A stretch of 33,705 nt of DNA from an uncultured Clostridia bacterium (lineage in GTDB: Bacteria; Bacillota; Clostridia; TANB77; CAG-508), in the NCBI GenBank assembly GCA_947627555.1, contig CANQWL010000002.1, forward strand, positions 1-33,705. Direction: 5' to 3'. Position numbers and translations under genes: made by a program. Below the pieces are notes generated by a model. The model saw nothing but the letters and a program-made list of their open reading frames with translations, made no database searches and had not been told where the DNA came from. Numbering within the stretch: the stretch's first letter is position 1; every line of letters starts with the position of its first letter. Positions 9,397-33,688 of the stretch are shown one piece after another.

Positions 9397-9469
9397 ATTT
9401 ATCACTCCATTTCCATTATTTTGCTACATCATATCATACAAACAAAAAAATGTCAAACATATTTTTGAT

Positions 9470-14122: not shown

Positions 14123-14154
14123 ATATATTACCTCTCTTTTCATTTGATATACTC

Positions 14155-16272: not shown

Positions 16273-17315
16273 TTATTTACTATTTCTAAGTTTTATAATG
16301 TTTTGAATCTTTTTTTCATAAAATTCATATATAACTGTCGAAATCAAAAATATAATAATATACGTAATTCCTACATAACAAATATTATAATGACCTGTTA
16401 GATTTATTATTTTTAATAATATAATATATCCTATATTTTGATGAATTAAATACTGAATAAAAGAAGTCTTACCCATATATAATAATAAATGTAGTTTGCA
16501 TGATTTTATTGGATATTTTATAAGAATAATAAATATAACTGTAAAAATAAAAATGCCTATAAAAACTATTATATTACTAGATATTATAATATTAACAATA
16601 CTCATAAAAAATATAATATAATTAGTTAATTGTTTTTTATTTTCTGTTAATATAAATTTTAATGATATTCCTATTAATAAATATCCTAAATAATCACCAC
16701 CAGTTAGTATGTATAAATATTCAAGTCTACTATAATAACTTGACATTATATTTAATAAATTATTAATTATTAAAATAACAATAAAATAATACTTACCTTT
16801 ATTTAGTTTATCTCTAAAGCAGCTTATATATATAGCAGAAATTATATAAAATATAATTAAATATGTTAAATACCAATGGGCCCCATCAACATGTTTTATT
16901 TGTCCGTACTCCACCTAAAAAAAATAAATTACATATATATTCTAGAAAAGAGGGTTGTCTTCCTTCTAATCCAAAAGTAGAAATACATATAAAAATTATT
17001 GTCATGCATAATACATAAGATGGATATACACGTAATATTTTATTTTTTAAGTAATTAAAAATTTTTATATTTTTTTCAGATTTCGGAAGCATAAAATAGC
17101 CACTTATTATAAAGAAGCAAGCTACTGCTGTACCCCCCCCATTTAGATAATGTAACAAAATTAATTGTTTTTATATTAAATAATTCTTCAAATTTGTATG
17201 TATAATGATAAAATATTACCATTAAAATTAAAATTGCTCTCAGCATTTCTATTCCTAAATTCTTTGATTCATAAATACTTTTTACTTTTATATCATTGTT
17301 ATTAAATTTTTTCAT
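16273..17315 (-). pseudogene. Acyltransferase family 3 (OafA/YrhL-type O-acyltransferase), split into three frames
   Basis: ORFs 17076-17315, 16886-17158 and 16273-16914 together read as one ~347-aa AT3 protein: LGIEMLRAILILMVIFYHY / GGGTAVACFFIISGYFM / RVYPSY / VDGAHWYLTYLIIFY, plus a C-terminal multi-TM region. The first break is at a G8 tract (17133-17140). The second break lies in 16886-16916. Confidence 0.8.
17133..17140 (-). repeat. Poly-G(8) tract on the coding strand, at the first frameshift of the acyltransferase
   Basis: The plus strand reads TACCCCCCCCA. Frames were worked out by hand, and G7 fuses ...FVTLSKWGG to TAVACFFIISGYFM. Confidence 0.9.
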
Positions 17316-17506
17316 AATTAATTTTTATCCTTTTCATATATTATTGAGTAATATTGTTATATTTTTATTGACAAAATTTTTACTTTTTTTATTAAACTCC
17401 TTATATTAATTTTGCTCATATTATTAAATAAAGTTTTTAGAACTGTCTTTTATTAATATAAAATAAATTAATAGATTATATACTTTTATATATTTTCTCT
17501 CATCAC

Positions 17507-18274
<768 letters not shown>

Positions 18275-18302
18275 ATTTCTCCCTCCTACATTTTTTGTAT
18301 AA

Positions 18303-19124
18303 TTATTTCATATATGCTTTATAATAATGATGTGCTATTCTTTCATTTTCTGGTGGTAATTTCATATAATCTCCATACAATATTTTTAAACATTCATCAT
18401 AATTATAAGGAACTCTAAAAGTTTTACCGTTAAAATTTTTATAACATTCTAAATTTTTTCCATCATCTAACATGTTTTTGGTAAATTTTCTATCAAAATT
18501 GCTATTCCAACATAAAACATCAATATATTTTGATTTTTCAAAAGTATATTTTTGTGATATTTTATCAATTTTTTCTATAATTCTATTTAAATTTTTATTT
18601 TTTATCATCAAATAGTAAGGATATTTTAAAATTGTCCTTATTCTTGATTTACTAGGAATAAATGCATTTCTTCCTAGTATTCGTATGTTTTTAATGATAT
18701 GTTCTAATTTTCTATATAACCTTTTGTCATTAATACATACTCCATCTAAAGGATATATATCAACAAATAAACCTAATCCATAATCTTTAGCATCCTTATA
18801 ATCTATATAATATCGTGTATCTGAAAATCTAGCTATTGGATATATATATTTTTCATTTGTTGAGTAATGAATAAGTTCAAATGGTTTTAATTTTTTATTA
18901 TTTTCTTTACAATAAGAAATAAACTTTTCATAATCATCTCTCGGTACCCATACATCTATATCATCATCCCAAGGTATAAACCCTTCATGTCTTATAGCCC
19001 CTAGCAATGTTCCATAAGTTAAATAATACTTCCAACCATTTTCATCAAAAATTTCCTTTATTCTTTTTAAAACTTCAAAACTTCCTTGTTGAATTTGCTC
19101 AAGTGTAAGTTCTTTCTTTTCCAT
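18303..19124 (-). CDS. LicD family phosphotransferase
   Basis: 273 aa with the LicD signature YGTLLGAIRHEGFIPWDDDIDVWVPRDDY. Confidence 0.85.
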   Translation of the reverse strand: MEKKELTLEQIQQGSFEVLKRIKEIFDENGWKYYLTYGTLLGAIRHEGFIPWDDDIDVWVPRDDYEKFISYCKENNKKLKPFELIHYSTNEKYIYPIARFSDTRYYIDYKDAKDYGLGLFVDIYPLDGVCINDKRLYRKLEHIIKNIRILGRNAFIPSKSRIRTILKYPYYLMIKNKNLNRIIEKIDKISQKYTFEKSKYIDVLCWNSNFDRKFTKNMLDDGKNLECYKNFNGKTFRVPYNYDECLKILYGDYMKLPPENERIAHHYYKAYMK

Positions 19125-19148
19125 ATTTTTTACATCTCCTATTATATT

Positions 19149-20594
19149 CTATAAGTGTAATTTCACTAAAAATCTTTTTGCAAAATCACATACAAATTCT
19201 TCTTTTAGAGCTATTAATATTCCAAAATAAATTAATATTGAACCTATAATTTGTAACAATACCATATATAACTGATCTATTCTTAAAAAACTAATTAATT
19301 TCAAATATATACTCATTAAAATAATTACTATTATTTCTTTAAATAAAGTATCATTTATACTTTGCAATTTAAAATATTTTTTCCCAAAGTATACATATAT
19401 AACCATTACTACAAATTCTCCCATAACAGATGCTATTGATGCTCCTATTTCTTGATATCTTTGAATCAAAAAATAATTGAGTATAACATTTGTTACCGCT
19501 CCACATATTACAGGTATAACCATCTTCTTCTCATTATTTGTTACTAAACAAACTCTTGAGCCTAATAAATATCCTATTGGTGATATTAGCAAAATAAGAG
19601 ATACAATTTTTAATACATATGAGCTTCTTATATAGTTATCTCCATATAACTTACAAACTAAATAATTCGAAGTAAACCATATCCCAATTATCATTGGAAT
19701 TGAAACAAGTAAAATTGTTTTTAGTGCTTTTGTTAATACTTCATTATATTCTTTTATCTTTCCTTCTTTGTAATACTCTGATATTCTTGGTACAAGAACT
19801 ACTGTAAATGTATTTACAATTTGTAACAATATTTTATAAATTTTTATTCCATAAGAATAAAATGCTACATTTTCTTTTGAACACATATGTCCAAGCATTG
19901 TAATATCAACAAGTGAATATATTTCTATTGCTAAATTTACTACAACAAGGAAAAAAATGGACTTTAAGTGTCTTTTTAAATTTATATCTTTAAAAGTAAA
20001 CTTAACAAATTTTTTAGAATTCATGATATTTAGTATATAATTTCCAGCAGTTCCAATTACAGTTATTGCAGCATACATTAAATAATCATTAGGTGATTTT
20101 ACAAAAATAACTAATAAAAACAGTGAAAAAATTTTAAAAATAAGATTTCTAACTGATATATACTTGAATTCTTCTAATCCTTCATATAGCCATGAATTAT
20201 TTAAAACATTTAAAATAATAGAAATACCTACAACTAAAAATAATTTTAAATCTTGACTATATTTAGGAATGTGCAAAATTAGATAAAGATATAATAATGT
20301 AAAAATAATTGTGGATATAAAGTTTATTATCATTAATTCAGAATATACTTTATTTAATTTTTCTTTATCTTTTTTACATTTTGAAATCTCTCTTAAGCCA
20401 TAAGTTGGTATTCCTAAAAAAGAAAATATTACAAAATATTGTGCAAAGTTTCTAGCTATTTCAACTTGTCCAATTGTATCTGGTAGTAAAATATGTGTTA
20501 CATAAATGCCAGTAACAAATGGAAAAACTATATTTATCAAATTGTAAAATAAATAAAATATCGAATTAAAAGTCAATGATTTATTACTTTTCAA
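19149..20594 (-). CDS. Wzx-type oligosaccharide flippase (MOP superfamily)
   Basis: 481 aa and highly hydrophobic, with ~12-14 helices. Its position is typical of a Wzx/Wzy-type locus. TTG start with AAGGAG 9 nt upstream. Confidence 0.7.
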   Translation of the reverse strand: MKSNKSLTFNSIFYLFYNLINIVFPFVTGIYVTHILLPDTIGQVEIARNFAQYFVIFSFLGIPTYGLREISKCKKDKEKLNKVYSELMIINFISTIIFTLLYLYLILHIPKYSQDLKLFLVVGISIILNVLNNSWLYEGLEEFKYISVRNLIFKIFSLFLLVIFVKSPNDYLMYAAITVIGTAGNYILNIMNSKKFVKFTFKDINLKRHLKSIFFLVVVNLAIEIYSLVDITMLGHMCSKENVAFYSYGIKIYKILLQIVNTFTVVLVPRISEYYKEGKIKEYNEVLTKALKTILLVSIPMIIGIWFTSNYLVCKLYGDNYIRSSYVLKIVSLILLISPIGYLLGSRVCLVTNNEKKMVIPVICGAVTNVILNYFLIQRYQEIGASIASVMGEFVVMVIYVYFGKKYFKLQSINDTLFKEIIVIILMSIYLKLISFLRIDQLYMVLLQIIGSILIYFGILIALKEEFVCDFAKRFLVKLHL

Positions 20595-20609
20595 CTTTAA
20601 CTTCTCCTT

Positions 20610-21776
20610 TTAGTCTCTACTATATAAATCTCTTGTATAAACTTTATCTTTCACTTCAAAAAGTTTATCTTCATATCTATTTGCTAATATTACATCTGAT
20701 TCTTTTTTAAATTTTTCAAAATTATTTATTACATTGCAATCTAAAAACTTATCTTTTTTCAACGTTGGTTCATATATTATTATTTCAACGCCTTCTTTCT
20801 TTAAGTTTTCTATTACTCCTTGTATTGCACTAAATCTAAAATTGTCTGACTCTGATTTCATTGTTAACCTATATACTCCAACTATATCTGGATCTCTTCT
20901 CATTATCATTTCTGCTATATGTTTTTTCCTCGTTCTATTACTTCTTACTATTGCTCTTATTAAGTTTTGTGGTACATTTTCAAAGTTTGCTAACAACTGT
21001 TTTGTATCTTTTGGTAAACAATACCCTCCATATCCAAATGATGGATTATTATAATATGTTCCTATTCTTGGATCTAAACAAATTCCATCTATGATATCTT
21101 TTGAATTTAATCCCTTTATTTCTGCATAAGTATCCAATTCATTAAAATATGATACTCTCAATGCTAAATAAGTATTTGCAAATAATTTTACTGCTTCTGC
21201 TTCTGTTGAATTCATATATTTTACTTCTATTTTTTCTTTTAGTGCTCCTTCTTTTAAAAGATTAGCAAATTCTATTGCCCTTTTACTTTTTTCTCCCATT
21301 ATTATTCTTGAAGGATATAAATTATCATATAATGCTCGTCCTTCTCTTAAAAATTCTGGACTAAACATTATATTGTCTATTCCATATTTTTGTTTTATAC
21401 TCTCTATGTATCCTACTGGAATAGTTGATTTTACTACTATTGTTGTATCCATTTCCATTGATATTACTTTTTCTATTATATCTTCTACACTTGATGTGTC
21501 AAAATAATTTCTTTCATCATCATAATTTGTTGGTGTTGATATAACTATATACTTTGCTCCTTCAAAAGCGTCTTTATAGTCTAATGTTGCTTTTAAATCT
21601 AATGTTTTATTTGCAAAAAAATCTTCTATTTCTTTATCTCTTATTGGAGAAATTCTTTTGTTTATCATTTCAACTTTTTCTGGTATTATATCTAATGCAA
21701 CAACCTCATTTTTTTGACTTAATAATGTTGCTATTGATAATCCTACATATCCTGTTCCTGCTACTGCTATTTTCAT
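20610..21776 (-). CDS. ugd: UDP-glucose 6-dehydrogenase
   Basis: [14 protein letters not shown]ossmann N-terminus and catalytic [14 protein letters not shown]. By memory it resembles streptococcal HasB along its whole length. I place the start at the ATG at 21776 rather than the track's 21809. Confidence 0.9.
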
Positions 21777-21815
21777 TTTTATTATTTCCCTTCGAATTTT
21801 ATTTTTCATGTAAAA

Positions 21816-22844
21816 CTAATTCATATAGAATTCTTTATACCACTGCGCAAATTTTCTTAATCCTTCTCTTAGTGAAGTATGTGGTTTGAATCCAAAATCT
21901 CTTTCTAATGGTATTGTATCTGCATAAGTTACTGGTACATCTCCTGCTTGCATTGGTACTAATTCTTTATGTGCTTCAAAATCATAGTCTTCTGGTAATA
22001 CCTTTGCTCTTATTAATTCTTCTTGCAATATATTTACAAAATCTAATAAATTTTCAGGATGATTATTTCCTATATTATATATTGCATATGGTGGTATTGG
22101 TAAACCATCTTTTCCATTTTCCTTTTTAGGAGGTTTCTTTATTACTCTCACTATGCCCTCAACTATATCATCTATATATGTAAAATCTCTTTTGCAATTT
22201 CCATAATTAAATATCTTTATTTTTTCTCCTTTAAGTAATTTATTTGTGAATCCAAAATATGCCATATCTGGTCTTCCAGCTGGTCCATACACTGTAAAAA
22301 ACCTTAATCCAGTAGATGGAATATTATATAATTTAGAATAACTATGCGCTAATAATTCATTTGATTTTTTAGTTGCTGCATATAGTGAAACTGGATTATC
22401 AACTTTATCATCTGTTGAAAATGGTACCTTTGTATTTCCACCATAAACTGATGAACTAGAAGCATATACTAAATGTTCTACTTTGTAATATCTACAACAC
22501 TCTAAGATGTTGTAAAATCCTATTAAATTAGATTCAATATATACATCTGGATTTGTTATACTATATCTAACTCCAGCTTGTGCTGCTAAGTTTATTACTA
22601 TCTCTGGTTTATATTCTTTAAAAATATTTTCAACTGTTATTTTATCTGCTAAATTTCCTTTTATAAATATAAAGTTTTTAAATTTATTCAGTTCTTTTAA
22701 ACGATACTCTTTAATTTTTACATCATAATAGTCATTCATATTGTCTAAACAAATTACTTTGCAATCTACTTCATCTTTTAAAATCCTTTTGGCTAAATTT
22801 GAACCTATAAAGCCTGCTGCTCCTGTAATAAAATATATTTTCAT
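21816..22844 (-). CDS. NAD-dependent epimerase, UDP-glucuronate 4-epimerase-like
   Basis: 342 aa with ITGAAGFIGSNL and YAATKKSNE (YxxxK). It lies directly upstream of ugd. ATGA start/stop overlap with the preceding gene. Confidence 0.7.
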   Translation of the reverse strand: MKIYFITGAAGFIGSNLAKRILKDEVDCKVICLDNMNDYYDVKIKEYRLKELNKFKNFIFIKGNLADKITVENIFKEYKPEIVINLAAQAGVRYSITNPDVYIESNLIGFYNILECCRYYKVEHLVYASSSSVYGGNTKVPFSTDDKVDNPVSLYAATKKSNELLAHSYSKLYNIPSTGLRFFTVYGPAGRPDMAYFGFTNKLLKGEKIKIFNYGNCKRDFTYIDDIVEGIVRVIKKPPKKENGKDGLPIPPYAIYNIGNNHPENLLDFVNILQEELIRAKVLPEDYDFEAHKELVPMQAGDVPVTYADTIPLERDFGFKPHTSLREGLRKFAQWYKEFYMN

Positions 22845-23917
22845 TTTTTTGCTCCTTCTTGTTCATCTTTCATAAATTCTATCATTCTAATATACATTTC
22901 TTCTAAATCTTTTTTTGCTTTCCAACCTAATTTTTTTATTTTTTCTGTATCTAAATTCATGTGTAAAGTAGGTGCATATCCAAATTTATTTAAATTTTCT
23001 TCTACTATACACTTTACTCTTATATTTTGATTATTTTTTGACACTAAATTAGCCATTTCTAAAATTGAACAATATGTATCTTCATTAGCAAGGTTATAAA
23101 TATTATTTTCACTATTTTTTAATAAAATCTGTAAAACGGCACTTATTGCATCTGATACATACAAATAACTTCTTTTTGTATCTCCCTTTGTGTGAAGTAT
23201 AATATCTCTAGTTTCTATAACGCATCTAGCAAACTCTGCAAATACTCTTTCATCTTCATATCTAACACCAGACCCAAATGTTTGAGTTAACCTAATTATA
23301 CTTATAATAAAATTATATTTATTTGCATAACATGTACATAAATTTTCACACATAATTTTACTTATTGGATAACAATTTCTTGTATTAATAGTTGATAAAT
23401 CAATTCCATGTTCTTCTGTTATTTTTTCATCTGTTGATGGATGTCCATATACTTCCATGGTAGAAAAAAAGATGAACTTACTTATATTCTTTTTTTTTGC
23501 TAATTCTAATACATTTCTAGTTCCTCTTAAATTTATATCTATTGTTTCTAATGAATTTTGTATAAAAAATTTGCTTGAAGTTTGACTCGCAGCATGAATT
23601 ATATAATCAATATTTCCATTATATATAATTTCATCTACTATATTTCCTTCTATAAATTCTAACTGTCCTTTGTTAAATATCAGCTGTTTTTCAAACATTT
23701 TTTTTGCTTTATTTAAATTTCTTACTAATGCAATAACTTTACAATTTAAATTATATTCATAATTAGCATATATAATTGTATTTACTAATAGACTACCTAA
23801 TAGTCCAGTAGCACCTGTAACAAAAATATTTTTATTTTTTAATAATTTCCAGTTTATTTTTTCATTAAAAACATTTTCTTCTATATCTTCTTTATAAATT
23901 TTATTTTCAAAATTCAT
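22841..23917 (-). CDS. NAD-dependent epimerase/dehydratase family SDR
   Basis: 358 aa with VTGATGLLGS and YPISK. It lies immediately downstream of an IspD-like cytidylyltransferase, so it could be a CDP-ketose or alditol reductase. Confidence 0.7.
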   Translation of the reverse strand: MNFENKIYKEDIEENVFNEKINWKLLKNKNIFVTGATGLLGSLLVNTIIYANYEYNLNCKVIALVRNLNKAKKMFEKQLIFNKGQLEFIEGNIVDEIIYNGNIDYIIHAASQTSSKFFIQNSLETIDINLRGTRNVLELAKKKNISKFIFFSTMEVYGHPSTDEKITEEHGIDLSTINTRNCYPISKIMCENLCTCYANKYNFIISIIRLTQTFGSGVRYEDERVFAEFARCVIETRDIILHTKGDTKRSYLYVSDAISAVLQILLKNSENNIYNLANEDTYCSILEMANLVSKNNQNIRVKCIVEENLNKFGYAPTLHMNLDTEKIKKLGWKAKKDLEEMYIRMIEFMKDEQEGAKK

Positions 23918-23929
23918 ATAAATTTTCCT

Positions 23930-24700
23930 CTATTCATTTTTTATTATATTGTACTGTATTCCTATTTTATTAGTCTCACCAAGGTTAAAAATTTGTTCAC
24001 TTTCTTTGTATTGTAAAAAAGCTTTAAATGTAAATACGTCTTCAGGAGTCGTAATTTTTATATTTCCTCTATTACCCTTTACCAAGTGAATACTTTTTCC
24101 TAATTTTCTAAAAATAGTACATGCATCAACCATATTTTTATATCCATCTTTTGAATTTCTTATCTTTTCATGTGCCTCAATAATGTCTTTTAAATAAAAA
24201 CTTTGCGGAGCTTGTCCAATAAAAGTTTCGTTCCTTGTTGTTACTGCATCTATGTAATTATTATCTTTGCTTATCATTATAGTCTCAAATGCTGGTATAC
24301 TAGTAATAGCGTTTCCAAATTTTTTTACTCCTTCTATATTGCTAGAAATAACATCAGATGAAACAAATGGTCTAACACCATCATGTAACAAAACTATTGT
24401 ATTTTCAGGATTTTCTTTTTCTACTTCTTTTAAAGCATTATATATAGAATCTTGAGCAGTTTTACCACCTTCTACAATAGAAACTACTTTATCTAATTTA
24501 TATATGTTTATTAAATTATTCACGTATCCTATGTAATTTTTTAAAGTTGAAATGTATATTTTATCTATTTCTTTATTATATTGAAATAGTTCTACTGTAT
24601 GAACCAATATAGGTTTACCATTTATCTCTAAAAATTGTTTAGGTATCTCTGATTTCATTCTTGTTCCTTTACCACTTGCAAATATTACTGCTACATTCAT
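23930..24700 (-). CDS. IspD/TarI-family cytidylyltransferase (CDP-alditol type), copy 1
   Basis: 256 aa with IFASGKGTRMKSEIPKQF and HDGVRPF. AAGGAG RBS. Confidence 0.8.
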   Translation of the reverse strand: MNVAVIFASGKGTRMKSEIPKQFLEINGKPILVHTVELFQYNKEIDKIYISTLKNYIGYVNNLINIYKLDKVVSIVEGGKTAQDSIYNALKEVEKENPENTIVLLHDGVRPFVSSDVISSNIEGVKKFGNAITSIPAFETIMISKDNNYIDAVTTRNETFIGQAPQSFYLKDIIEAHEKIRNSKDGYKNMVDACTIFRKLGKSIHLVKGNRGNIKITTPEDVFTFKAFLQYKESEQIFNLGETNKIGIQYNIIKNE

Positions 24701-24713
24701 TATATCTTACTCC

Positions 24714-25637
24714 TTATAACCAATTTAATAAAACCTTACAAATAAATATAAATCTTTTTTCATCTATATTTTTATATACATTTTGACTAAAAATTAATTT
24801 TATTTTATTTCTTATGTTCTTTCTATAATTAACTATTTGCTCAACAACTAATTTATCTTTTTCATTTAAATCAATTTTATTTAACAGTTCACTTGCTATT
24901 TTACTTCTTCCATTTCTTAACGAATCATTAAATATCTTTTTCTTAATAATTTTTAATTTTCTTTTCAATCCATTATCTATTCCAACAGTATTTTTATTAT
25001 GTATTCTATAATTTATATAAGAGTTTTCATCGTATATAACATATCCTATTGCTGATGCAACAAGTATAACCCAGACATCATGCATTCTTATACGTAAAAC
25101 ATCATTATTAGGTCTTCTATTTTTTTCAGAAATTATATTTCTTAGTTGTTTATTCATTACCATTGTACATCCTGCAATGTGATTTCCAAAAATAATATTG
25201 ACAAGTGAAATATTAGGATTTCTATTATATCTTAACCCTTCTATTTTATTTTCTCGAAAGATTGTCTGATTAGAACAATATAATGCTGGTTTATCATATT
25301 TTTCTATTTTTTCTATTGCCTTATATAATTTATTTTCTTTCCAGATATCATCTTGATCTGCAAAAGCATAATAATCATATTCTTGTGGTGCTTCATATAA
25401 TAGTTGCATAAATCCTACTGCTGGTCCTAAATTTTCGTCGCCTAATATCACTTTTACTTTATTTTCTTTTTCTATTGTTTTTAGATATTCTCTTGTTCCA
25501 TCTGTTGACATATCATCTCTTATAATTAAATATACTTCTACATCCTTTTGGTTTAAAATAGATTGAATTTGTTCTTCTATATATTTTTTTCCATTATATG
25601 TAGCCATTAATACACATATTTTTTTATTATCCATCAT
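24714..25637 (-). CDS. Glycosyltransferase family 2
   Basis: 307 aa with CVLMATYNGKKYIEEQIQSILNQ, RDDMSTDGT and FADQDDIW (DxD). Confidence 0.85.
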   Translation of the reverse strand: MMDNKKICVLMATYNGKKYIEEQIQSILNQKDVEVYLIIRDDMSTDGTREYLKTIEKENKVKVILGDENLGPAVGFMQLLYEAPQEYDYYAFADQDDIWKENKLYKAIEKIEKYDKPALYCSNQTIFRENKIEGLRYNRNPNISLVNIIFGNHIAGCTMVMNKQLRNIISEKNRRPNNDVLRIRMHDVWVILVASAIGYVIYDENSYINYRIHNKNTVGIDNGLKRKLKIIKKKIFNDSLRNGRSKIASELLNKIDLNEKDKLVVEQIVNYRKNIRNKIKLIFSQNVYKNIDEKRFIFICKVLLNWL

Positions 25638-26931
25638 CTAAATCTCCATTTATTTTATAATTCACATGTTTATTATTATACTTTATTTTAAAATTGTTAT
25701 TGAATACAATTCCAATTATAAAACACCAAATAAATCTTTCCATAAATGAGGTTGTTGTGTAGTACGATCCAAAAAAAGATAATATGCTAAATGTTATATA
25801 ACAGCAAAAAAATATATTTTTTCTGTCATTATTATTAAAATGTATATTTAAGAATATGCATTCACTAATAAATCCCCATAAGATACTGAATATTCCAAAA
25901 GCTAATATATTTCCATTTCCATATGCCATTGTCATAGTAGAAACTACATTTCCTTCTTGAGCTTCAAACCCACTAGAAATTGTTGTTACAGAAGGAAAAG
26001 AACTTAAATATGGTAAATTTTCAGCAACTTGTCCTCCCATTTTTATTCCGAAAAATTTATTTATAATCATATCCGGAAAAGCAAATATAATATCCCATAT
26101 ATAATCAAAACCATTAGTAATAACTTGGCTTGATGATGATGTAATTAAATTAGAATTTATAATTCCTCCTGCAATATAAGTCCACAAACGATATACATAG
26201 TATGTCCCTTCTACATTTTCAACAAAACCTTGTAAAATAAATTTTGATGCATAATTAGTAATAAACACAATACCTATTAAAGGGAAAATTAAAAATAAAC
26301 CTCTTTTAAAATATTTTTTATCTTTTAATGAACAATATATATAAGTAGATAAAACCAGTGATATGATTTGTGCTTTTTCAGTTTCTATAAAAGAATATAT
26401 TGCATAGATTAAAAATAAAATTAAATACTTCTTATCTTTTTTATTTTTAAGCCAATGATAAAAATATAACATCATTAATGGAAATACTGAAAGCATTAAA
26501 TGAGATACCGGTCCTCTAGATACAAACATTTTAAAATCATTTTCAATCATTCCATGTAAACCATAATTAAAATAATATTTTAATAATTGTGCAGATCTTA
26601 TTAGTAAAACTATGATTACATATGGTACTGTTTTTTCTACTAAAATTTTATTTGTATTTATTTCTTTATTATTATTTTTTTTAAATCTATTTGATATTGT
26701 TAATATGCAAAATACTGAGCCAATAAAGAAAAAAATTATACCTAAAAAAATCATCCATTGTGTATCTGAGTTGATTTCTTTAAAATAAAATTTCGTAGCA
26801 ATATGATTATTAATTAATAATATAACCACATAAGGTAACATTATAGCATTAAATGAATTTATACTTCTTTTATAAATTTTCTGATAAAATATAACTATTA
26901 ATATAGTAATAATATAAATTGCAATTTCCAT
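25627..26931 (-). CDS. Wzy-like oligosaccharide repeat-unit polymerase (polytopic membrane protein)
   Basis: 434 aa with ~10-12 hydrophobic helices. Called from locus context together with Wzx. No diagnostic motif recognised. Confidence 0.5.
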   Translation of the reverse strand: MEIAIYIITILIVIFYQKIYKRSINSFNAIMLPYVVILLINNHIATKFYFKEINSDTQWMIFLGIIFFFIGSVFCILTISNRFKKNNNKEINTNKILVEKTVPYVIIVLLIRSAQLLKYYFNYGLHGMIENDFKMFVSRGPVSHLMLSVFPLMMLYFYHWLKNKKDKKYLILFLIYAIYSFIETEKAQIISLVLSTYIYCSLKDKKYFKRGLFLIFPLIGIVFITNYASKFILQGFVENVEGTYYVYRLWTYIAGGIINSNLITSSSSQVITNGFDYIWDIIFAFPDMIINKFFGIKMGGQVAENLPYLSSFPSVTTISSGFEAQEGNVVSTMTMAYGNGNILAFGIFSILWGFISECIFLNIHFNNNDRKNIFFCCYITFSILSFFGSYYTTTSFMERFIWCFIIGIVFNNNFKIKYNNKHVNYKINGDLDDG

Positions 26932-26972
26932 ATAAAAATTTCCTTTTAAATAGAATTTTATTTTTTATTCAA

Positions 26973-27728
26973 TTATCGATTATAACTATTACATTTCCAT
27001 AAATAATAAAATATGACAATTACCATTGCTAGTATGTAAAATAAATCATAATATACTGATAATAGTCCGTATAAATTAAAAAATGGACATAAAAATAATA
27101 TAAACATTGGAATTCCTACTATTCCACATTCTACTCCAACCATTTTTCTAAATTTCTGAAATCCTTTTAAAGTATATTGATTATTTCCTTTTTCTATTTT
27201 TTTACCTGTTTTTATTTCTACTTGAGTTGCCTCAAAAGCAAATTTTTGATGAATAAGTCTAGATAAGGCATTACCTGTAGATGCTACACCAGCAAAAATC
27301 AATAAATATTTATCAGATATATTTAATTGATTATATCCTACATTAATGCTCGCACAAGCTAGTGAAATTGGCAAAAAAATTGTTATTATATAACCGCTCA
27401 TAGCATCAATAAATTCACCAAAATATGATTCTGTCTTTGTATATCTTGCAATATTTCCATCTATGCAATCAAATAAATGCCAAATAGGTACTAAGATTAC
27501 ACCTATAACACGTATTATATTATTAGGAATTGCCATAAATATGCATGCAAGAAAAGCAATTATAATTGATAATACACTTACTTGAAAAGCACTTGCTCCT
27601 ATTTTTAAAAACGGTATAGTAACCCAATATGATATTTTTCTTACAGGAACTATTATTCCATATATTGATTCTACAGATTTTTTTTCTTTTGGAAAAGTAT
27701 TTTTTAAGTCATTATACGTTACTTTCAT
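26973..27728 (-). CDS. CDP-alcohol phosphatidyltransferase family protein
   Basis: 251 aa membrane protein carrying DCIDGNIARYTKTESYFGEFIDAMSG. This matches D-x2-DG-x2-AR-x8-G-x3-D, but the final x3-D position is Gly. Confidence 0.75.
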   Translation of the reverse strand: MKVTYNDLKNTFPKEKKSVESIYGIIVPVRKISYWVTIPFLKIGASAFQVSVLSIIIAFLACIFMAIPNNIIRVIGVILVPIWHLFDCIDGNIARYTKTESYFGEFIDAMSGYIITIFLPISLACASINVGYNQLNISDKYLLIFAGVASTGNALSRLIHQKFAFEATQVEIKTGKKIEKGNNQYTLKGFQKFRKMVGVECGIVGIPMFILFLCPFFNLYGLLSVYYDLFYILAMVIVIFYYLWKCNSYNR

Positions 27729-27763
27729 AACTTTACTCCTCTTACTAAATAAAATTTTATTTT

Positions 27764-28659
27764 TTATATATTAAACAAATTACCCAACTCAAAATCATAT
27801 TCGTCTGGTTCAAACATAAAATATCCACTTGCATTAAAGAATGTCATTTCTCCAAAAAATATATTACCATCTATATTGTAAAAATCCACTCTTACATGAG
27901 GAAAACCCTTTGATAATTTCTTTGCCATTTCAACCATCTTTTCAAAGTTTTTTGGTTTTTCCGGTTGCCTCAAAATTGGTTTAAAATCTTTACGATGAAC
28001 ATCTAATAATTTAAAATTCATATCAAAAAATCCTAACTCACCTAAATCATGATTTTCTCTATAATTTTGCATCATATATAAACATATTGGTTTTCCATCA
28101 AAACAAAAAAACTTATAATCTGGTAAATCCCCATCTAAGCCGTCTAATTTTTTTTCTACTATTATACGATGCTTTTTATTATCATAACACCATTCTCTAC
28201 CAACATTCTTTTTGTTTATAGGTTCATTTACCCATTTTTTCATTTGAGATATTAATTCGTTTTTATTACATGAATTTTTATCATTTATTAGCAGAACAGA
28301 GGTTCCACCCCCCCTAATGTATCTTTTAATACAAATTTATTTGGGAGTTTATCAAAATCAATTTCTAATGGATTGTCATATACTCCATAACATTTATTTA
28401 ATATATTTTCTAAACCACATTGTTTTACATATTTTCTAACTTCATATTTATCTACACATTTTTCCATAAGTGGATTTCTATATTTCAACTTATATAATTG
28501 TAATTTTTCAGTATATCTTTTGGGATTATTTAAATTTAATTTTCGTCCTGTTTTTATCCTATATTGTAAAGATAACATTTGTTTATCAGGAATAAAATTT
28601 AATAATCTTAAAATTCTTATACGTACATTTTTAGATTTTATAATTTTCTTATAATCCAT
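27764..28659 (-). pseudogene. TupA-like ATP-grasp protein, split in two by a frameshift at a G7 tract
   Basis: ORFs 28288-28659 (NLNNPKRYTEKLQLYKL...KFVLKDTLGG) and 27764-28243 (DYKFFCFDGKP...VRVDFYNIDGNIFFGEMTF) are the N- and C-terminal halves of one ~298-aa protein. Adding one G at 28308-28314 gives an open frame through ...TLGGGGTSVLLINDKNSCNKNELISQMKKWVNEP... Confidence 0.8.
28308..28314 (-). repeat. Poly-G(7) tract on the coding strand, at the ATP-grasp frameshift
   Basis: The plus strand reads CCACCCCCCCTAA. Codon-by-codon check: there are 71 nt from the first G to the downstream ATG, so +1 G restores the frame and no stop codon intervenes. Confidence 0.9.
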
Positions 28660-28671
28660 ATTTACCTCTTT

Positions 28672-29766
28672 TTAATTTATTTTTTCTAAATATTTTTCTA
28701 TTACTATATTTCTATTAAATTGTTTAATCATTTTTTCTCTTCCTGCTAATCCCATATTCTTTTTTTGTTCGTATGATAATTTAATAAATTTTTCTATTTT
28801 ATTAACTAAATCTTTTACATTTCCCTTTTCATAAATATATCCTGTATATCCGTTATTTACTGTTTCAAAACATCCAGGATTATTTGTAGTAATAATTGGT
28901 CGTCCAGAAGATGCATTTTCTAATAACACATTCGACATACCTTCTCCATATTTAGAAGGATGAATAATTGCATGAGACCTTTTGATATAAGGAATAACAT
29001 CCTTTTGCTCTCCTCTATAAATAATTATTCCATCATCTTCTAATTTTTTAAAATCATCTATATAATGTTTTTCCGTTGGTTCAATAAAACCAATTATATT
29101 AAATTCGGTATTTTTATATTTCTTTTTAATTTCTTTCGCTGCTTCTATATAATCATCTATACCCTTTTCTTTTAAAACTCTGCCAAAATAATTAAATACA
29201 ATTTTTTCGTCATTTGGAGGATATTCTTGTAGCGAGAATTTATTTATATTAACTCCAGATCCTGGAATTAGTTGATAATCACCAGATATTATTTTCTTAT
29301 TTAATATTAGTTTCATGTTAGTTTCATTTTGAAAAAATACACATTTAGATTCTTTTAATGCAAGTTTTAATAATTTATATATTAAATTTTGTAAGAGTTT
29401 CCCTTTATTTAATATACTGCCTAAACCTGTAATATTGTTTATATATTCTACTTTACAAAATCTACATGCGATACTTGCATAAACATTCGGTTTTATTGTA
29501 TATGCTAAAACAATATCTGGTTTATATTTATTTAAAAATTTAATATAATGTAACAATAGTTTAAAATCTTTTAGTGGATTTATTCCCCTTCTATCTATAA
29601 TAGGATTATCTAATTTGAATTTTATATTATTCATTAAATCTAATTTTTCACCATATGGACAAGAAATTATTATTTCATTTTTTTCTAAATATAATTTTTC
29701 AATTAATTCTTTTCTAAAACAATATATATCATCAGCATGATTTGCTACTATTGCTATTTTTTTCAA
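28672..29766 (-). CDS. Glycosyltransferase family 4
   Basis: 364 aa with the GT-B/GT4 E-x7-E region PSKYGEGMSNVLLENASSGRPIITTN. Confidence 0.85.
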   Translation of the reverse strand: MKKIAIVANHADDIYCFRKELIEKLYLEKNEIIISCPYGEKLDLMNNIKFKLDNPIIDRRGINPLKDFKLLLHYIKFLNKYKPDIVLAYTIKPNVYASIACRFCKVEYINNITGLGSILNKGKLLQNLIYKLLKLALKESKCVFFQNETNMKLILNKKIISGDYQLIPGSGVNINKFSLQEYPPNDEKIVFNYFGRVLKEKGIDDYIEAAKEIKKKYKNTEFNIIGFIEPTEKHYIDDFKKLEDDGIIIYRGEQKDVIPYIKRSHAIIHPSKYGEGMSNVLLENASSGRPIITTNNPGCFETVNNGYTGYIYEKGNVKDLVNKIEKFIKLSYEQKKNMGLAGREKMIKQFNRNIVIEKYLEKIN

Positions 29767-30537
29767 TTATTTTAACACTCCTATCACTGTATCTATACAT
29801 ATCTTAAAATCATTTATTAAACTAAATTTTTTTATGTATTCTAAATTATATTTCATTTTCTTTGGTAATACTTCTTCTATATAGATATCATCAATATCTT
29901 TTATATTTTTCATACTTTCAGATGAATCTTGCATTTCTTCAACAGTTGTTATATTAGCATACATTCGCTCTCTATTTTTTAACATATATTTATTTAAAAT
30001 TTCGTTTTCATTTTTATATTTAATACTTGCATATGATGTTACTCCTGCTGGCATTAATAAAGTTGCTTTCATTTCATCTGTATACTTATCTACATATTTT
30101 TTTACTTCTGGTCTGGTTCCTACAAATGACATGTCTCCCTTTAGTATATTTATCAATTGCGGAAATTCATCTAATCTTAATTTCCTTATTATATTTCCAA
30201 CTCTAGTTATCCTAGAGTCTTCATTTAATGTTATTAAATTTCCTATCTTGTCTGCATCTTGTATCATAGTTCTAAATTTTAATATTTTAAAAATTCTATT
30301 ATATTGTGTTATTCGTGGTTGCTTATAAAACACTGGTCCTTTTGAGTCAATTTTTATAACTATAGCTAATATTATAAATATTGGCAAAAGTACTATTAAC
30401 AATATAATTGAAAAGAATATATCAAAAAATCGTTTTAGTAATAAACTTATTTTTCTTTTTTTCAATTCATCATAATATATACGTGTTTTTTCATTTTTAA
30501 TATTTTCTGGCAAGTCTTCCCATTTTTTTAAAATCAT
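29767..30537 (-). CDS. Initiating sugar-phosphate transferase (bacterial sugar transferase family, PglC/WbaP C-terminal-domain type)
   Basis: 256 aa with a single N-terminal reentrant/TM helix, FKILKFRTM and DEFPQLINILKGDMSFVGTRP. There is an extra ~40-aa acidic insertion before the C-terminal helix. Confidence 0.85.
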   Translation of the reverse strand: MILKKWEDLPENIKNEKTRIYYDELKKRKISLLLKRFFDIFFSIILLIVLLPIFIILAIVIKIDSKGPVFYKQPRITQYNRIFKILKFRTMIQDADKIGNLITLNEDSRITRVGNIIRKLRLDEFPQLINILKGDMSFVGTRPEVKKYVDKYTDEMKATLLMPAGVTSYASIKYKNENEILNKYMLKNRERMYANITTVEEMQDSSESMKNIKDIDDIYIEEVLPKKMKYNLEYIKKFSLINDFKICIDTVIGVLK

Positions 30538-30541
30538 ATTA

Positions 30542-31738
30542 TTACTCCAAAATTTTTTTAAAGTTTTTTATTATATATTCTATTTGTTCATCTGTTAATA
30601 AAGTATGCAGTGGTAATGTTATTTCATTTTTATACATTTCATAAGAATTTGGATAATCTTTTATATCAAATCCCAAATTTTTATATGCCATCATCATCGG
30701 TAATGGTTTATAATGTACATTTGTCGGTATTCCTAAGTTTGACATCTTCTTTATAATATTATTTCTATATTCTTCATCTTTACCTAGTAGTCTAACAAAA
30801 TATAAATGTCCGCTTGATTGAATTTTATCATTATAATGTTCTAATATTTGAATATTATTATCTTTTAGTCCTTCATTATACATTTTTATAATTTCTTTTC
30901 TTCTTTTTAATAGTTCATTATATCTACATAATTGTGCTAATCCAATTGATGCCATAATATCTGTCATATTGCATTTATAAGCTGGCATTTTTATGTCATA
31001 TTCCCAACCATTTGATTTAGTTTTTGATAAGGCATCTTTGTTTTGCCCATGCAAAGACCATAACATAAATTGCTCATATATTTCTTCATCCTGTATGCCT
31101 CTGATTTTTTTCCAAGTTACTGCTCCTCCTTCTGCTGTAGTTAAATTTTTGACTGCATGAAATGAAAAACTTGTAAAATCCGCAATATTACCAGTATTAA
31201 TACCTTTGTATTTAGCCCCAAAAGAATGTGCTCCATCTGCTATTATTACTATTTTTCCTATTGCTTTTTGTATTTTATTTTTAGCTATAAATTTTTCTTT
31301 ATTATTTTCTATTATCTCATATATTTTATCGTAATTCGCTGGTATTCCAGCTAAATCAACTGCTATAATAGCTTTGGTTTTATTTGTTATTTTTTCTTCT
31401 ATTCTTTCATAGTCCATTTCATAAGAATCTTTTGCTGTATCAAGAAATACAATTTTTGCTCCTACATGTTCAATTACACTTGCTGAAGCTGTATATGTAT
31501 AGGCTGGAACAATTACTTCATCATCTTTACCTATTTCTAATATTCTTAATATCATTTCTAATCCTGCGGTTGCAGAATTTAAGCAAACTGCTTTGGGTGT
31601 ACCACAAAATTCTGCTATTTGTCTTTCAAATAATTTTGTTTTTGGACCAGTTGTAATCCATCCTGATTTTAATGTATCTACCACTTCATCAATTTCTTTT
31701 TGCGTTATATCTGGTGGTGAAAATTTTATACATTCCAA
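30542..31738 (-). CDS. DegT/DnrJ/EryC1/StrS family PLP-dependent sugar aminotransferase
   Basis: 398 aa with SGWITTGPK, DGAHSFG and FSFHAVKNLTTAEGGA (PLP lysine). TTG start with AGAAGGA ~6 nt upstream. Confidence 0.9.
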   Translation of the reverse strand: MECIKFSPPDITQKEIDEVVDTLKSGWITTGPKTKLFERQIAEFCGTPKAVCLNSATAGLEMILRILEIGKDDEVIVPAYTYTASASVIEHVGAKIVFLDTAKDSYEMDYERIEEKITNKTKAIIAVDLAGIPANYDKIYEIIENNKEKFIAKNKIQKAIGKIVIIADGAHSFGAKYKGINTGNIADFTSFSFHAVKNLTTAEGGAVTWKKIRGIQDEEIYEQFMLWSLHGQNKDALSKTKSNGWEYDIKMPAYKCNMTDIMASIGLAQLCRYNELLKRRKEIIKMYNEGLKDNNIQILEHYNDKIQSSGHLYFVRLLGKDEEYRNNIIKKMSNLGIPTNVHYKPLPMMMAYKNLGFDIKDYPNSYEMYKNEITLPLHTLLTDEQIEYIIKNFKKILE

Positions 31739-31998
31739 ATCAATTCCTTCTTTCTTCTTTCCTTATAGTTAATGTCTTTTATACATTTTGTATTTCATTA
31801 ATTTTCATTATTACAACATAGAATCAATGAATATTTTGCTTCTTCATCTATACATTTCAGTATAGATTTGCGATATTCAACATAACTACATAAACATATA
31901 GTTTATGCACTTACCTATATGTTTTTATTTCACATAGGCTTTTTATTTATAAGTTTTACATTTAGAGTATTTATTTTGTTTTTTATAAAATTTTTAAT

Positions 31999-33252
31999 TT
32001 ATATTTTTTTGTCATATTTCCTTAAGCAACCCAATGCTATGTTCATTGCACAATTAAAGAAATAATCTGCTTGATGTCCATTTTTACAAATTGCCTTATC
32101 TTCTATTATTTTTTTATTTGTTTGTTTCCTTATTTTTCTTTCCATTACTTCTCCACATTTGTAGCATTTATCTGTTTTTTCTGTCATATCAACAAATGTT
32201 ACAAGAATATTTTCTTTAAATGCTTTATATCTAACGTAGTTTGTGATTCTATCTCTTAATGTTGCTGGATTAAATCTTTTTGAATATTTTAAAAAGATTT
32301 TGTCACTTCTAACATTTGATAGTGCTATTATTGTAACTTCATTTTCTACGCAAAAATCTACAATATTTCTGCTTATTACATGTGAAAAATGTGTGGTATA
32401 TTTTGATATCTTTTTCCAGTACTTTTTATTTGAACCTTTAACTTTATTTGAATTTTTAGCTATATGAGTATTTCTTTGTATCTTCCTCATAGCTTGGCTT
32501 GTTAAATATTTATATTCGTCTCCTCCTGAAATAAATAAAGTTTTCACAAATTTACCGTTAATATCTACTACTACACATGTTGCAATGTTGTTCTTTCCGG
32601 AAAATGCTACTCCACATACTCGTGTGTTCTTATCTTCCATTCTTTCTTTTATTGTTGTAAGATTTTCTACTGTACACCTTACTGGAATGTCTACTAATAC
32701 AAATTTCTTTTCTACCTTGATTTTTGGAGATAAGAGCTCTGCATTTTCAGGTATGTCCCATTTACTAAACTTTGCTTCATACCATTTCCAGTCTGTTCCG
32801 TTATAGAGTTTGAATTTAATTTTTCTATCTTCTAAGTATTGATACATTTCTTGATAATATGTTGTAGGAAAATTAAATTCTTTTGCTATACTTGGAAGTT
32901 TATTGTTTTTACTGCTGTCAACACTTTTTTCTAAGTTTGTAAAATATGCTTTTGCTTGTCCTATCGCTTGCATCATAGCTGACCTTCTGAACCTAGAGGG
33001 TACATCACATTTGAAATATTCTTTTGGAATTTCTCCGTATTTATTTATACATGTTATATTTTCTAGCTTTGTTCTACAGTTTCTAGAAGATTCTTTGAGA
33101 AATTCTTGATATTTAAATAGTAAATTATAATATTTTAGTACAAGTTCATTAAATTTTTGATTCGTTAATTTAAAGTATTCTAAATATTCTGTGTATAGCC
33201 TTCTTTTATAAATTACTGTGTAATACCCTTGTTTTTGCTCTTCTTCAGCCAT
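31999..33252 (-). CDS. TnpB-like (IS605 OrfB family) protein with substituted RuvC-I and RuvC-II catalytic positions
   Basis: 417 aa. TnpB hallmarks are HVISRNIVDFCVENEVTIIALSNV, YVRYKAFKENILVTFVDMTEKTDKCYKCG...CKNGHQADYFFNCAMNIA (zinc ribbon plus RuvC-III). The expected G-[IV]-D-x-G is GVAFSG and the expected I-x-x-E-D-L is IIALSNV. GGAGG RBS 6 nt upstream. There is no tnpA nearby. Confidence 0.8.
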   Translation of the reverse strand: MAEEEQKQGYYTVIYKRRLYTEYLEYFKLTNQKFNELVLKYYNLLFKYQEFLKESSRNCRTKLENITCINKYGEIPKEYFKCDVPSRFRRSAMMQAIGQAKAYFTNLEKSVDSSKNNKLPSIAKEFNFPTTYYQEMYQYLEDRKIKFKLYNGTDWKWYEAKFSKWDIPENAELLSPKIKVEKKFVLVDIPVRCTVENLTTIKERMEDKNTRVCGVAFSGKNNIATCVVVDINGKFVKTLFISGGDEYKYLTSQAMRKIQRNTHIAKNSNKVKGSNKKYWKKISKYTTHFSHVISRNIVDFCVENEVTIIALSNVRSDKIFLKYSKRFNPATLRDRITNYVRYKAFKENILVTFVDMTEKTDKCYKCGEVMERKIRKQTNKKIIEDKAICKNGHQADYFFNCAMNIALGCLRKYDKKI

Positions 33253-33273
33253 TTTATTCCTCCGAATTTACAC

Positions 33274-33296
33274 CATAAAGTCAAAGACTTTATGAT
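33274..33296. repeat. IR-L: 23-bp site CATAAAGTC-AAA-GACTTTATGAT, the perfect inverted copy of 33577-33599
   Basis: Read directly. 9-bp palindromic arms flank an asymmetric AAA core. It lies 21 nt upstream of the tnpB-like start codon. Confidence 0.9.
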
Positions 33297-33310
33297 TTTT
33301 AGGCATAATA

Positions 33311-33352
33311 AAAAAAGGCAATGAGCCTATTATTAGCTTTATTGCCTTTTTA
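33311..33352 (-). terminator. Rho-independent terminator (bidirectional shape, stronger on the minus strand) inside the IR-bracketed segment
   Basis: AAGGCAAT/ATTGCCTT stem extended by AGC/GCT. T6 follows on the minus strand and T4 on the plus strand. Confidence 0.65.
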
Positions 33353-33537
33353 GTATTACATATTTAGTTACTTATTTTTATAATTATAACAATATATTAA
33401 AATATTTTGTTTTAATTCAATGTTATGTTAGGTTTTATATGATATTTTTTTTGTTCTCATATCCTCTGTACCCCCCTTATATATCTGTTACTTCTATAAA
33501 TTTTTTAGAAGATAATCTAAAAAAATGTCAATAAGTA

Positions 33538-33566
33538 TTGAACTATTTATAAACTTGTGTTAAAAT
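33538..33566 (+). promoter_or_regulatory. Promoter P1: TTGAAC-17 nt-TAAAAT with a TGn extended -10, inside the IR-bracketed segment and pointing out through IR-R
   Basis: Plus strand reads TTGAACtatttataaacttgTGtTAAAAT. The spacing was counted directly. Confidence 0.55.
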
Positions 33567-33576
33567 AAAAATTGAT

Positions 33577-33599
33577 ATCATAAAGTCTTTGACTTTATG
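33577..33599. repeat. IR-R: 23-bp site ATCATAAAGTC-TTT-GACTTTATG, the perfect inverted copy of 33274-33296
   Basis: Read directly. Its reverse complement is identical to IR-L over 23 bp. Confidence 0.9.
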
Positions 33600-33649: not shown

Positions 33650-33688
33650 AAAAAGAAGAAGTTTTTATACAAAATTTCTTCTTTTTTG
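33650..33688 (+). terminator. Rho-independent terminator about 65 nt downstream of P2
   Basis: AGAAGAAGTTTT ... AAAATTTCTTCT stem of ~12 bp including one G-U, followed by T5. Confidence 0.55.

Follow-up and report, generated by a model that had tools for sequence, protein, structure and literature searches.

Several described systems resemble the locus that we report here. One of them comprises the TldR proteins, TnpBs devoid of nuclease activity that use guides of 9-16 nt to repress transcription (Wiegand et al., PMC10705468); the published TldR clades are associated with fliC, oppF, and csrA (PMC10705468; Xiao et al., 10.64898/2026.09.22.753285), and those associated with fliC and oppF are said to descend directly from mobile TnpBs. 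A second system, dCas12f-sigmaE, consists of RNA-guided transcription activators of Bacteroidetes hosts (Hoffmann et al., PMC13472631). In addition, the main-text passages on inactivated TnpBs in the survey of Altae-Tran et al. [quoted passage not shown] Here we describe a 417-amino-acid (aa) TnpB/Cas12f-like protein encoded on a 33,705-nt stretch of DNA from an uncultured Clostridia bacterium (contig CANQWL010000002.1, assembly GCA_947627555.1; "the window" means this whole stretch). The protein has lost the RuvC catalytic residues, and we are highly confident of both its identity and its setting, at the head of a polysaccharide locus together with a structured RNA and an upstream inversion switch.

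Nuclease-dead relatives of TnpB and Cas12f have recently been recognised as a class of RNA-guided transcription factors that occur in nature, and capsule phase variation, the process to which we connect them here, governs phage susceptibility and host immune recognition. In Bacteroides, each genome holds several capsule loci in which a site-specific recombinase inverts a promoter flanked by inverted repeats; different loci have the recombination half-sites in common, and the first gene of each is regulatory, the first two encoding the NusG-like UpxY and UpxZ. We know of no account of how Firmicutes coordinate several switchable polysaccharide loci. By analogy with these systems, the 417-aa protein is most likely a TldR-like exapted RNA-guided protein, which gut Clostridia carry as the first module of polysaccharide loci controlled by inversion.

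Because its AlphaFold model is confident (pLDDT, the predicted local distance difference test, of 88.8 and predicted template modeling score, pTM, of 0.78, with a 39-sequence alignment as input) and superposes on Cas12f, TnpB, and dCas12f structures, we assign the 417-aa product, as modeled, as a complete TnpB/Cas12f-fold protein. Foldseek searches with this model returned AsCas12f, CnCas12f1, OsCas12f, ISDra2 TnpB, and dCas12f at a probability of 1.0 and template modeling (TM) scores of 0.5-0.63, and the WED-REC-RuvC-zinc-ribbon architecture of the fold was found with AlphaFold, Foldseek, and hhalign (100%) alike. The open reading frame (ORF) gave specific yet sub-threshold matches to the Pfam families OrfB_IS605 and Cas12f1-like_TNB and to the NCBIfam families Cas12f2 and guided_TnpB. 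Its top single-sequence match in the PDB was 9n9c, a "nuclease-deactivated Cas12f" (E 8.7e-5), and a profile of its 17 close homologues matched CnCas12f1, Cas12f-like TnpB, OsCas12f, and AsCas12f. An initial annotation had read a TnpB/IS605-OrfB layout from this ORF and had suggested a structural comparison with ISDra2 TnpB; the profile matches, the model with its Foldseek search, and hhalign all agree with that layout, and ISDra2 TnpB was among the structures matched at probability 1.0. The zinc ribbon described there is likewise retained, with CCCH ligands (C363, C366, C389, and H393) that are invariant across the close homologues. No protein name for the homologues appeared in any source that we checked. 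The other 417-aa ORF of the window (10609-11862) is, on inspection of its sequence, unrelated to the dead TnpB gene.

We examined the catalytic site in three independent alignments: a hidden Markov model (HMM) alignment against Cas12f structures, a MAFFT alignment of 88 family representatives that included active relatives, and an hhalign profile-profile alignment of the close family with 23 relatives that keep the triad (probability 100%, E 1e-57). In place of the Asp-Glu-Asp triad of active RuvC nucleases, we found Ala, Ser, and Phe in the three columns. All three alignments placed A216, which lies within an invariant CG[VI]AFS motif, in the RuvC-I Asp column and S312, a position held by A, T, or P in paralogues, in the RuvC-II Glu column. 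The initial annotation had proposed these same two replacements, which would have fallen had a proper alignment put Asp and Glu there, and the hhalign profile alignment bears them out. It had also proposed that RuvC-III was kept with a 2-residue insertion, and this must be revised: in the gapless alignments by HMM and by profile, F398 falls in the Asp column, and D396, which stands 2 residues upstream of it, is unconserved (N in P0010, N or another residue in the wider dead clade). Given that F398 occupies the Asp column and that D396 is unconserved, we conclude that all three catalytic residues have been lost. The triad was likewise gone from every full-length close-clade member in the MAFFT alignment, and more distant relatives retain the canonical VDLGIN, IVFEHL, and NADLNA motifs.

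An exhaustive search of 1.84 billion cluster representatives found relatives in 282 clusters at E<=1e-3, of which 44 reached E<=1e-30. Pairwise ratios of nonsynonymous to synonymous substitution (dN/dS) among homologues were 0.04-0.25, full-length ORFs are kept down to ~25-30% identity, and non-catalytic residues are invariant alongside the zinc ligands. We found no tnpA gene in the window, as the initial annotation had claimed, or in the homologous loci, and neither the left and right ends nor the near-identical dispersed copies of an IS200/IS605 or IS607 insertion sequence (IS). Several paralogues occur in one metagenome-assembled genome (MAG), and they are diverged, at 40-64% identity to the query; the sole identical copies are the modules of two related loci, L005 and L006, each of which heads a different polysaccharide locus in one metagenome. 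These results support the view that the gene is an exapted nuclease-dead member of the TnpB family under purifying selection rather than an IS. The initial annotation had favored the same reading, which many near-identical copies with IS ends would have overturned; apart from L005 and L006, copies within a genome have diverged.

Directly 3' of the stop codon in every locus lies an element of ~115 nt, in the position of an omega-RNA or guide RNA. A 17-locus alignment of this element folds as three hairpins and a long-range helix (TTGARTAT/ATAYTCAA), and the window RNA has the same hairpins, with its helix formed by TTGAATAT and ATATTCAA. Compensatory changes were found by RNAalifold in 19 of 37 pairs, paired cells amounted to 95.5% versus 30-50% when the partners were slid, and none of 500 shuffles attained the observed values. 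The window RNA was matched by cmsearch at 98.5 bits (E 9e-17). We found no known RNA family that matches it in Rfam at gathering or permissive thresholds. A covariance model built from the alignment recovered 21 true matches out of 120 metagenome pattern-scan hits, most of the others being due to chance, and these 21 represent a 52%-GC version, mostly from human-gut assemblies, in which AT stems have been swapped for GC stems. A conserved RNA at the gene's 3' end, as in the adjacent scaffolds of TldR systems, therefore accompanies every homologue, and from its position and conservation we infer that this cognate-looking RNA is the partner of the dead TnpB.

Some loci show further features of the gene or its RNA. 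In L014 (13-1300; MAG Lapin-016 bin76) the homologue is interrupted, with a 299-aa ORF, the remaining coding sequence out of frame, and the 3' RNA intact, and L005 and L006 encode a 399-aa form that is truncated immediately before the NxAMNI motif. L007 (2402-5130) contains tandem dead-TnpB paralogues of 412 and 404 aa and two copies of the RNA, one for each gene. The second copy differs in its 3' tail and in the long-range helix, where a compensatory change gives GAGTAT/ATACTC. In two human-gut loci (L066, 8985-9013; L078, 2655-2678), the RNA scaffold is closely preceded on its 5' side by a palindrome, GTGAATATTCAC, in which the terminal AATATTCA of the scaffold recurs, so that the scaffold is bracketed by a direct repeat.

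Upstream of the gene, we found a perfect inverted repeat of 23 nt that has only two copies in the window. Sites of the same type (CRTAAAGT-N5-ACTTTAYG) lie upstream of the homologues, with spacers that are specific to each locus and inverted between the arms, and from the end of the proximal arm to the start codon there are 21-37 nt in most loci, L007 being an exception at ~240 nt. Short switches of 188-280 bp are found in the window and in L001, L005, L006, L018, L019, L023, and L025, and long switches of 1.2-1.5 kb, with a tyrosine recombinase gene inside, in L007, L009, L015, L016, L022, and the human-gut loci. Each of the eight short switches contains a promoter (TTGAAn-17-TAnAAT) that points away from the gene and a gene-proximal terminator-like hairpin, an arrangement that we take for the OFF state; the promoter ends 9-12 nt from the distal arm in seven of them and 23 nt from it in L025. 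The arrangement is that of an invertible promoter, with the promoter on a segment between inverted recombinase sites directly upstream of an operon. We rejected the alternative that the palindromes are repetitive extragenic palindromic (REP)-like repeats or plus-strand terminators, given their two copies, their conserved upstream arrangement, and their inverted spacers.

Both orientations are represented among the long switches. L016 has a divergent recombinase, and its gene is faced by a promoter of the same geometry; in L022, L007, L009, and L015, the recombinase is co-oriented, and in L009, the one of these that we read, a terminator abuts the gene. The recombinases of L016 and L022 are orthologous (62% identity) and lie in opposite orientations inside segments flanked by inverted repeats. 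Similarly, the human-gut loci L066, L133, L078, and L141 share one orientation and L049 has the opposite one: the recombinase-end, terminator, and repeat sequences are homologous but lie on one side in L049 and on the other side in the rest. Given that inverted sites give inversion, not excision, and that the long switches occur in both states, we conclude that these are phase-variable polysaccharide loci. Judging from its sequence, the window switch appears to be in the OFF orientation. A further terminator-like hairpin (AAAAAGAAGAAGTTTT / AAAATTTCTTCTTTTT; 33650-33686) lies past the distal arm at the contig edge, and the window ends 106 nt beyond the switch.

All homologues with readable flanks lie directly 5' of, and co-oriented with, a polysaccharide locus headed by Bac_transf or DegT, so that, as in TldR systems, a RuvC-inactivated TnpB homologue sits in a conserved non-transposon neighbourhood. 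In the window, the dead TnpB gene is 260 bp upstream of the polysaccharide locus in the same orientation, which confirms the spacing and co-orientation given by the initial annotation. The window locus encodes a DegT aminotransferase, a Bac_transf priming transferase, GT1, a split TupA-like ATP-grasp protein, CDP-OH_P_transf, DUF6337, GT2, two IspD-type cytidylyltransferases, two epimerases, a UDP-glucose dehydrogenase, a flippase, LicD, and a truncated acyltransferase. The homologues come from uncultured rabbit-gut Clostridia of 25% GC and from a second, human-gut lineage of 52% GC. In the human-gut loci, where the stored flanks allowed, the RNA is preceded by a dead homologue of 400-424 aa (hmmsearch E ~1e-140) with CSVQFTNTD, VIVLPAYD, and GHQGSRFLNSARNLG motifs and is followed by polysaccharide genes (DegT, Bac_transf, and CapD-like). 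The order of protein, RNA, and polysaccharide genes therefore persists where protein identity has fallen to ~30% and GC content differs greatly (25-52%), and the link to variable polysaccharide loci that the initial annotation had drawn from the window extends across the same range. In L005 and L006, an identical protein heads two different polysaccharide loci: identity between the two is 100% over the stretch that starts at the proximal repeat arm and stops 23 nt past the RNA scaffold, and outside it they are unrelated. The features of the window are collected in Table 1.

Table 1. Features of the dead-TnpB locus in the window
Feature	Position	Strand	Basis or remark
Nuclease-dead TnpB/Cas12f-like protein, 417 aa	31999..33252	-	ORF list, profile, structure, alignment, and dN/dS evidence
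Ribosome-binding site GGAGG	33259..33263	-	6 nt 5' of ATG; direct sequence reading
Conserved structured RNA, candidate omega-RNA-derived guide-RNA scaffold	31826..31943	-	Conservation, covariation, cmsearch
RNA 3' tail TTGATTCTATGTTGTAATAATG, candidate guide	31806..31827	-	First ~14 nt conserved in subfamily
Gene-proximal inverted-repeat arm, lox-like CATAAAGT-CAAAG-ACTTTATG	33274..33296	.	Ends 21 nt before start codon
Putative invertible segment, 280 bp between arms	33297..33576	.	Same architecture upstream of homologues
Terminator-like hairpin with flanking A-run and T-run	33312..33351	.	Gene-proximal segment end; analogues in other loci
Sigma-70-like promoter TTGAAC-17-(TGt)TAAAAT	33538..33566	+	In segment; points away from gene
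Distal inverted-repeat arm, same half-sites, inverted 5-nt spacer CTTTG	33577..33599	.	T-run on outward side
Co-oriented polysaccharide biosynthesis locus	16273..31738	-	Family matches of window ORFs

Several details of the polysaccharide genes were also apparent. The last IspD-like gene (17507-18274, minus strand) contains at its 3' end a perfect (TG)16.5 tract (17517-17549) that encodes an HTHTHTHTHT tail and is, from its sequence, a candidate slipped-strand hypervariable tract inside the polysaccharide locus. A single TupA-like ATP-grasp domain is matched in its C-terminal part by one ORF (27764-28243) and in its N-terminal part by the adjacent ORF (28288-28659), and this gene is apparently split or frameshifted. 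At the distal end of the locus (16273-16914), an Acyl_transf_3 ORF covers only profile positions 119-325, which makes it an N-terminally truncated acyltransferase. Two glycan loci are adjacent in L001 (1-8272), where the recombinase and switch have a second polysaccharide locus directly upstream of them on the same strand. Elsewhere in the window, one of the three ORFs at 8743-9405, 12815-14143, and 14417-15610 matches SpoIIP (Pfam), and the other two, from inspection of their sequences, we take to be LexA-like and glucose-6-phosphate isomerase-like; together with the GC content of 25%, these point to a spore-forming Clostridia host.

We propose that the domesticated, catalytically dead TnpB/Cas12f-like protein and the ~115-nt RNA would form a ribonucleoprotein module that serves as the first unit of a phase-variable polysaccharide operon. 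A tyrosine recombinase would flip the 280-bp promoter segment between the lox-like inverted repeats. In the window as assembled, the promoter would be directed away from the gene (OFF), with the terminator hairpin facing it, and after inversion a single transcript from the promoter would cover the dead TnpB gene, the RNA, and the polysaccharide genes, so that the protein-RNA complex would be made only when its own locus is ON. The complex may then, as TldR does, bind DNA chosen by the RNA 3' tail and block RNA polymerase, with another surface-polysaccharide locus or the recombinase as possible targets. By analogy with the described systems, we infer RNA and DNA binding, repression, and the nature of the target, and with them the repression of competing loci by the dead TnpB-RNA module. 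We would put the probability of this explanation as a whole, mechanism included, at roughly one-half. A repressor that acts in trans under RNA guidance falls, as a mechanism, a little short of an even chance, and we hold it rather unlikely that, in gut Firmicutes with several inversion-switched capsule loci, the module of an ON locus acts as an RNA-programmed signal to the remaining genome, silences competing polysaccharide loci or the recombinase and so enforces one capsule at a time.

A number of observations weigh against this proposal, most of them concerning the RNA 3' tail. The tails are specific to groups, with the first 11-17 nt conserved within protein subfamilies, and fall into a T type that includes the window (TTGATTCNATNTTG), a G type (GAGWTNYCRAATT), an A type (AAGGCAGTARAATCCAA), and an AG type (AGATATTTGTA). 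We searched the window for exact and mismatched copies and compared all tails with the loci, switch regions, recombinase genes, and dead-TnpB genes, and we found no target flanked by a target-adjacent motif above chance in the window, ~45 related loci, or viral contigs. In the viral contigs, an exact 20-mer of the tail was unmatched and a degenerate pattern gave only chance-like hits; near-matches elsewhere, to the coding sequence of a conserved aminotransferase motif (ENIESRP) and, for AG-type tails, to the codons for EMYKYL in the L014 gene, were within the number expected by chance. Paralogous loci can have identical tails (L005/L006 and L018/L019), and simple mutual repression between loci therefore does not fit. 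In some loci, the ribosome-binding site of the next gene starts 15-20 nt past the scaffold, which leaves little room for a guide. The G-type tail pairs, through its nt 3-15, with the Lys-Phe-Gly codons at the end of its own ORF; 9-11 of 13 positions are paired, G.U pairs included, and this tail may form an RNA helix instead of a guide. On the side of the switch, the promoter calls are consensus matches only, and the short switches, in the window and seven other loci, have been assembled in one orientation only, so that inversion of the short type is taken over from the long type.

The pairing of the G-type tail is accompanied by one compensatory change between L009 and L022, and it may be either a closing helix of the RNA or complementarity to the 3' end of the tail's own or a paralogous gene; for the T-type tail of the window, we found no consistent pairing partner. 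Two other roles for the tail were considered and rejected. Complementarity to the recombination sites or spacers does not agree with L005 and L006, which have the same tail and different spacers, and sequence inspection spoke against the tail as an alternative partner of stem 1.

Many of these observations would be accommodated if the module acted in cis, and among the alternatives to RNA-guided repression in trans we consider this the strongest, although improbable. Here the dead TnpB would bind its RNA within the nascent operon transcript, as a leader ribonucleoprotein in the 5' leader of the polysaccharide genes, and would control the elongation, termination, mRNA stability, or translation of its own operon with no DNA target, as an antiterminator or attenuator like UpxY, the EAR element, or LoaP. 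In every case the RNA is situated between the gene and the first polysaccharide gene and no terminator intervenes, the next ribosome-binding site follows within 15-20 nt in several loci, and a U-rich tract follows the RNA in L022 and L024. Identical modules at the head of different loci would be harmless for a factor acting in cis, the failure to find a DNA target would be expected, and the G-type tail pairs with the 3' end of the ORF in the fashion of RNA, with G.U pairs. However, no TnpB/Cas12 relative is known to work in this way, and the position of the RNA is simply the ancestral position of an omega-RNA and so carries no extra weight. In addition, the zinc ribbon and the full REC and WED lobes, which serve DNA and heteroduplex binding, have been retained under selection, and the tandem modules of L007 are easier to explain as two guides.

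It is less probable still that the ribonucleoprotein is an accessory of the inversion switch, binding near the recombination sites or repressing the recombinase to bias or lock the orientation. The short distance from proximal arm to gene start in most loci (21-37 nt; ~240 nt in L007) and the recombinase gene inside or adjoining the switch would fit such a role, and in the passages on inactivated TnpBs of the 2023 survey an association with tyrosine recombinases is said to have arisen at least 3 times independently, always with complete TnpB inactivation (Altae-Tran et al. 2023, PMC10691335). The tails, however, match neither the arms, the spacers, nor the recombinase genes, and L005 and L006 share a tail and differ in the spacers of their sites.

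We think it quite improbable that the recombinase, repeats, and TnpB homologue make up a tyrosine-recombinase transposon or integrative element that has the repeats as attachment sites and for which polysaccharide loci are an insertion hot spot. The survey passages do treat such TnpBs among transposon associations, with repeats "indicative of attachment sites" (PMC10691335), and an identical module does occur in two loci of one metagenome. Against this, sites in inverted orientation lead to inversion and not to excision, the segment between the repeats does not include the dead TnpB gene, and the short switches hold a promoter and terminator only, with no recombinase. The position and orientation of the module relative to the polysaccharide genes are also constant across deep divergence, and dN/dS is low. 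Finally, a decaying IS200/IS605-type remnant without function, to which the loss of the catalytic triad, the frameshift in L014, and the C-terminal truncation in L005 and L006 might point, is effectively refuted by full-length ORFs conserved to ~25-30% identity at dN/dS of 0.04-0.25, by invariant non-catalytic residues and zinc ligands, by an RNA conserved with covariation, and by fixed synteny.

The proposed RNA-guided repression from the head of a phase-variable operon can be set beside each of the known systems. Active TnpB and Cas12f proteins (AsCas12f, 8j12/8dzj; CnCas12f1, 8hr5; OsCas12f, 9nzq; ISDra2 TnpB, 8h1j) share the fold (TM 0.5-0.63), the zinc ribbon, and an RNA of ~115 nt adjoining the gene; they differ in that D/E/D has become A/S/F here, in a setting of fixed synteny with no CRISPR array and no IS ends. 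The dCas12f-sigmaE system (PMC13472631; PDB 9n9c) likewise combines a nuclease-dead Cas12f-like protein, the top PDB match of ours, with a guide RNA and controls loci for surface or envelope functions. In contrast to that system, whose operon includes rpoE (a sigmaE with a C-terminal domain) and hth genes, we found no adjacent sigma-factor or helix-turn-helix gene in the window or the homologous loci, the protein here is full length with a zinc ribbon and dCas12f is C-terminally truncated, and the hosts here are Firmicutes and not Bacteroidetes.

The capsule loci of Bacteroides are alike in their multiplicity, invertible promoter, regulatory-type first gene, and common half-sites. They are unlike ours in that we found no UpxY or UpxZ here, the first genes being the dead TnpB homologue, DegT, and Bac_transf, and in that the first gene in these Clostridia hosts encodes a dead RNA-guided nuclease homologue accompanied by an RNA. 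If the silencing of competing loci were true, Bacteroides UpxZ/UpxY would have in the module a functional counterpart that works by RNA guidance, and exapted RNA-guided nucleases would have a new physiological role.

The inactivated TnpBs of the Altae-Tran survey are, as far as its passages on them describe these proteins, very likely the same group as the dead TnpBs reported here or a sister group. They too have lost the triad and have a phage-integrase-type recombinase upstream, in either orientation and flanked by inverted repeats, or sometimes the repeat only (PMC10691335). The survey differs from our account in treating these proteins under transposon associations and the repeats as attachment sites; the words "polysaccharide" and "glycosyl" are absent from its main text, and its main-text passages on inactivated TnpBs mention neither an invertible promoter or inversion switch nor the RNA described here. 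Our results reinterpret the "attachment sites" of 2023 as an invertible promoter switch. Full-text searches returned no paper linking a dead TnpB or Cas12f to capsule loci or invertons.

TldR proteins remain the closest comparison. They share with the protein described here an inactivated RuvC domain, the absence of tnpA and transposon ends, a fixed non-mobile neighbourhood whose genes encode a variable surface structure, and a structured RNA at the 3' end of the gene. They are unlike it in that here the protein is encoded by the first gene of an operon with the RNA in mid-operon, a DNA inversion gates expression, the neighbours are polysaccharide biosynthesis genes, and no guide-target pair was found in the window, ~45 related loci, or viral contigs. 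Given that the nearest solved relatives are Cas12f and Cas12f-like TnpB, an origin separate from the fliC, oppF, and csrA clades is suggested, and these sequence relationships probably reflect an independent domestication from a Cas12f-like ancestor. None of the published TldR clades, nor dCas12f, is tied to polysaccharide synthesis or invertible promoters, and our results suggest an RNA-guided layer of capsule control that has so far been undescribed. The physiological setting of this clade is clear, in phase-variable capsule or exopolysaccharide loci of gut Clostridia that include a lineage common in human-gut metagenomes, and a module as compact as this one (~400 aa and ~115 nt of RNA) could supply small programmable DNA binders.

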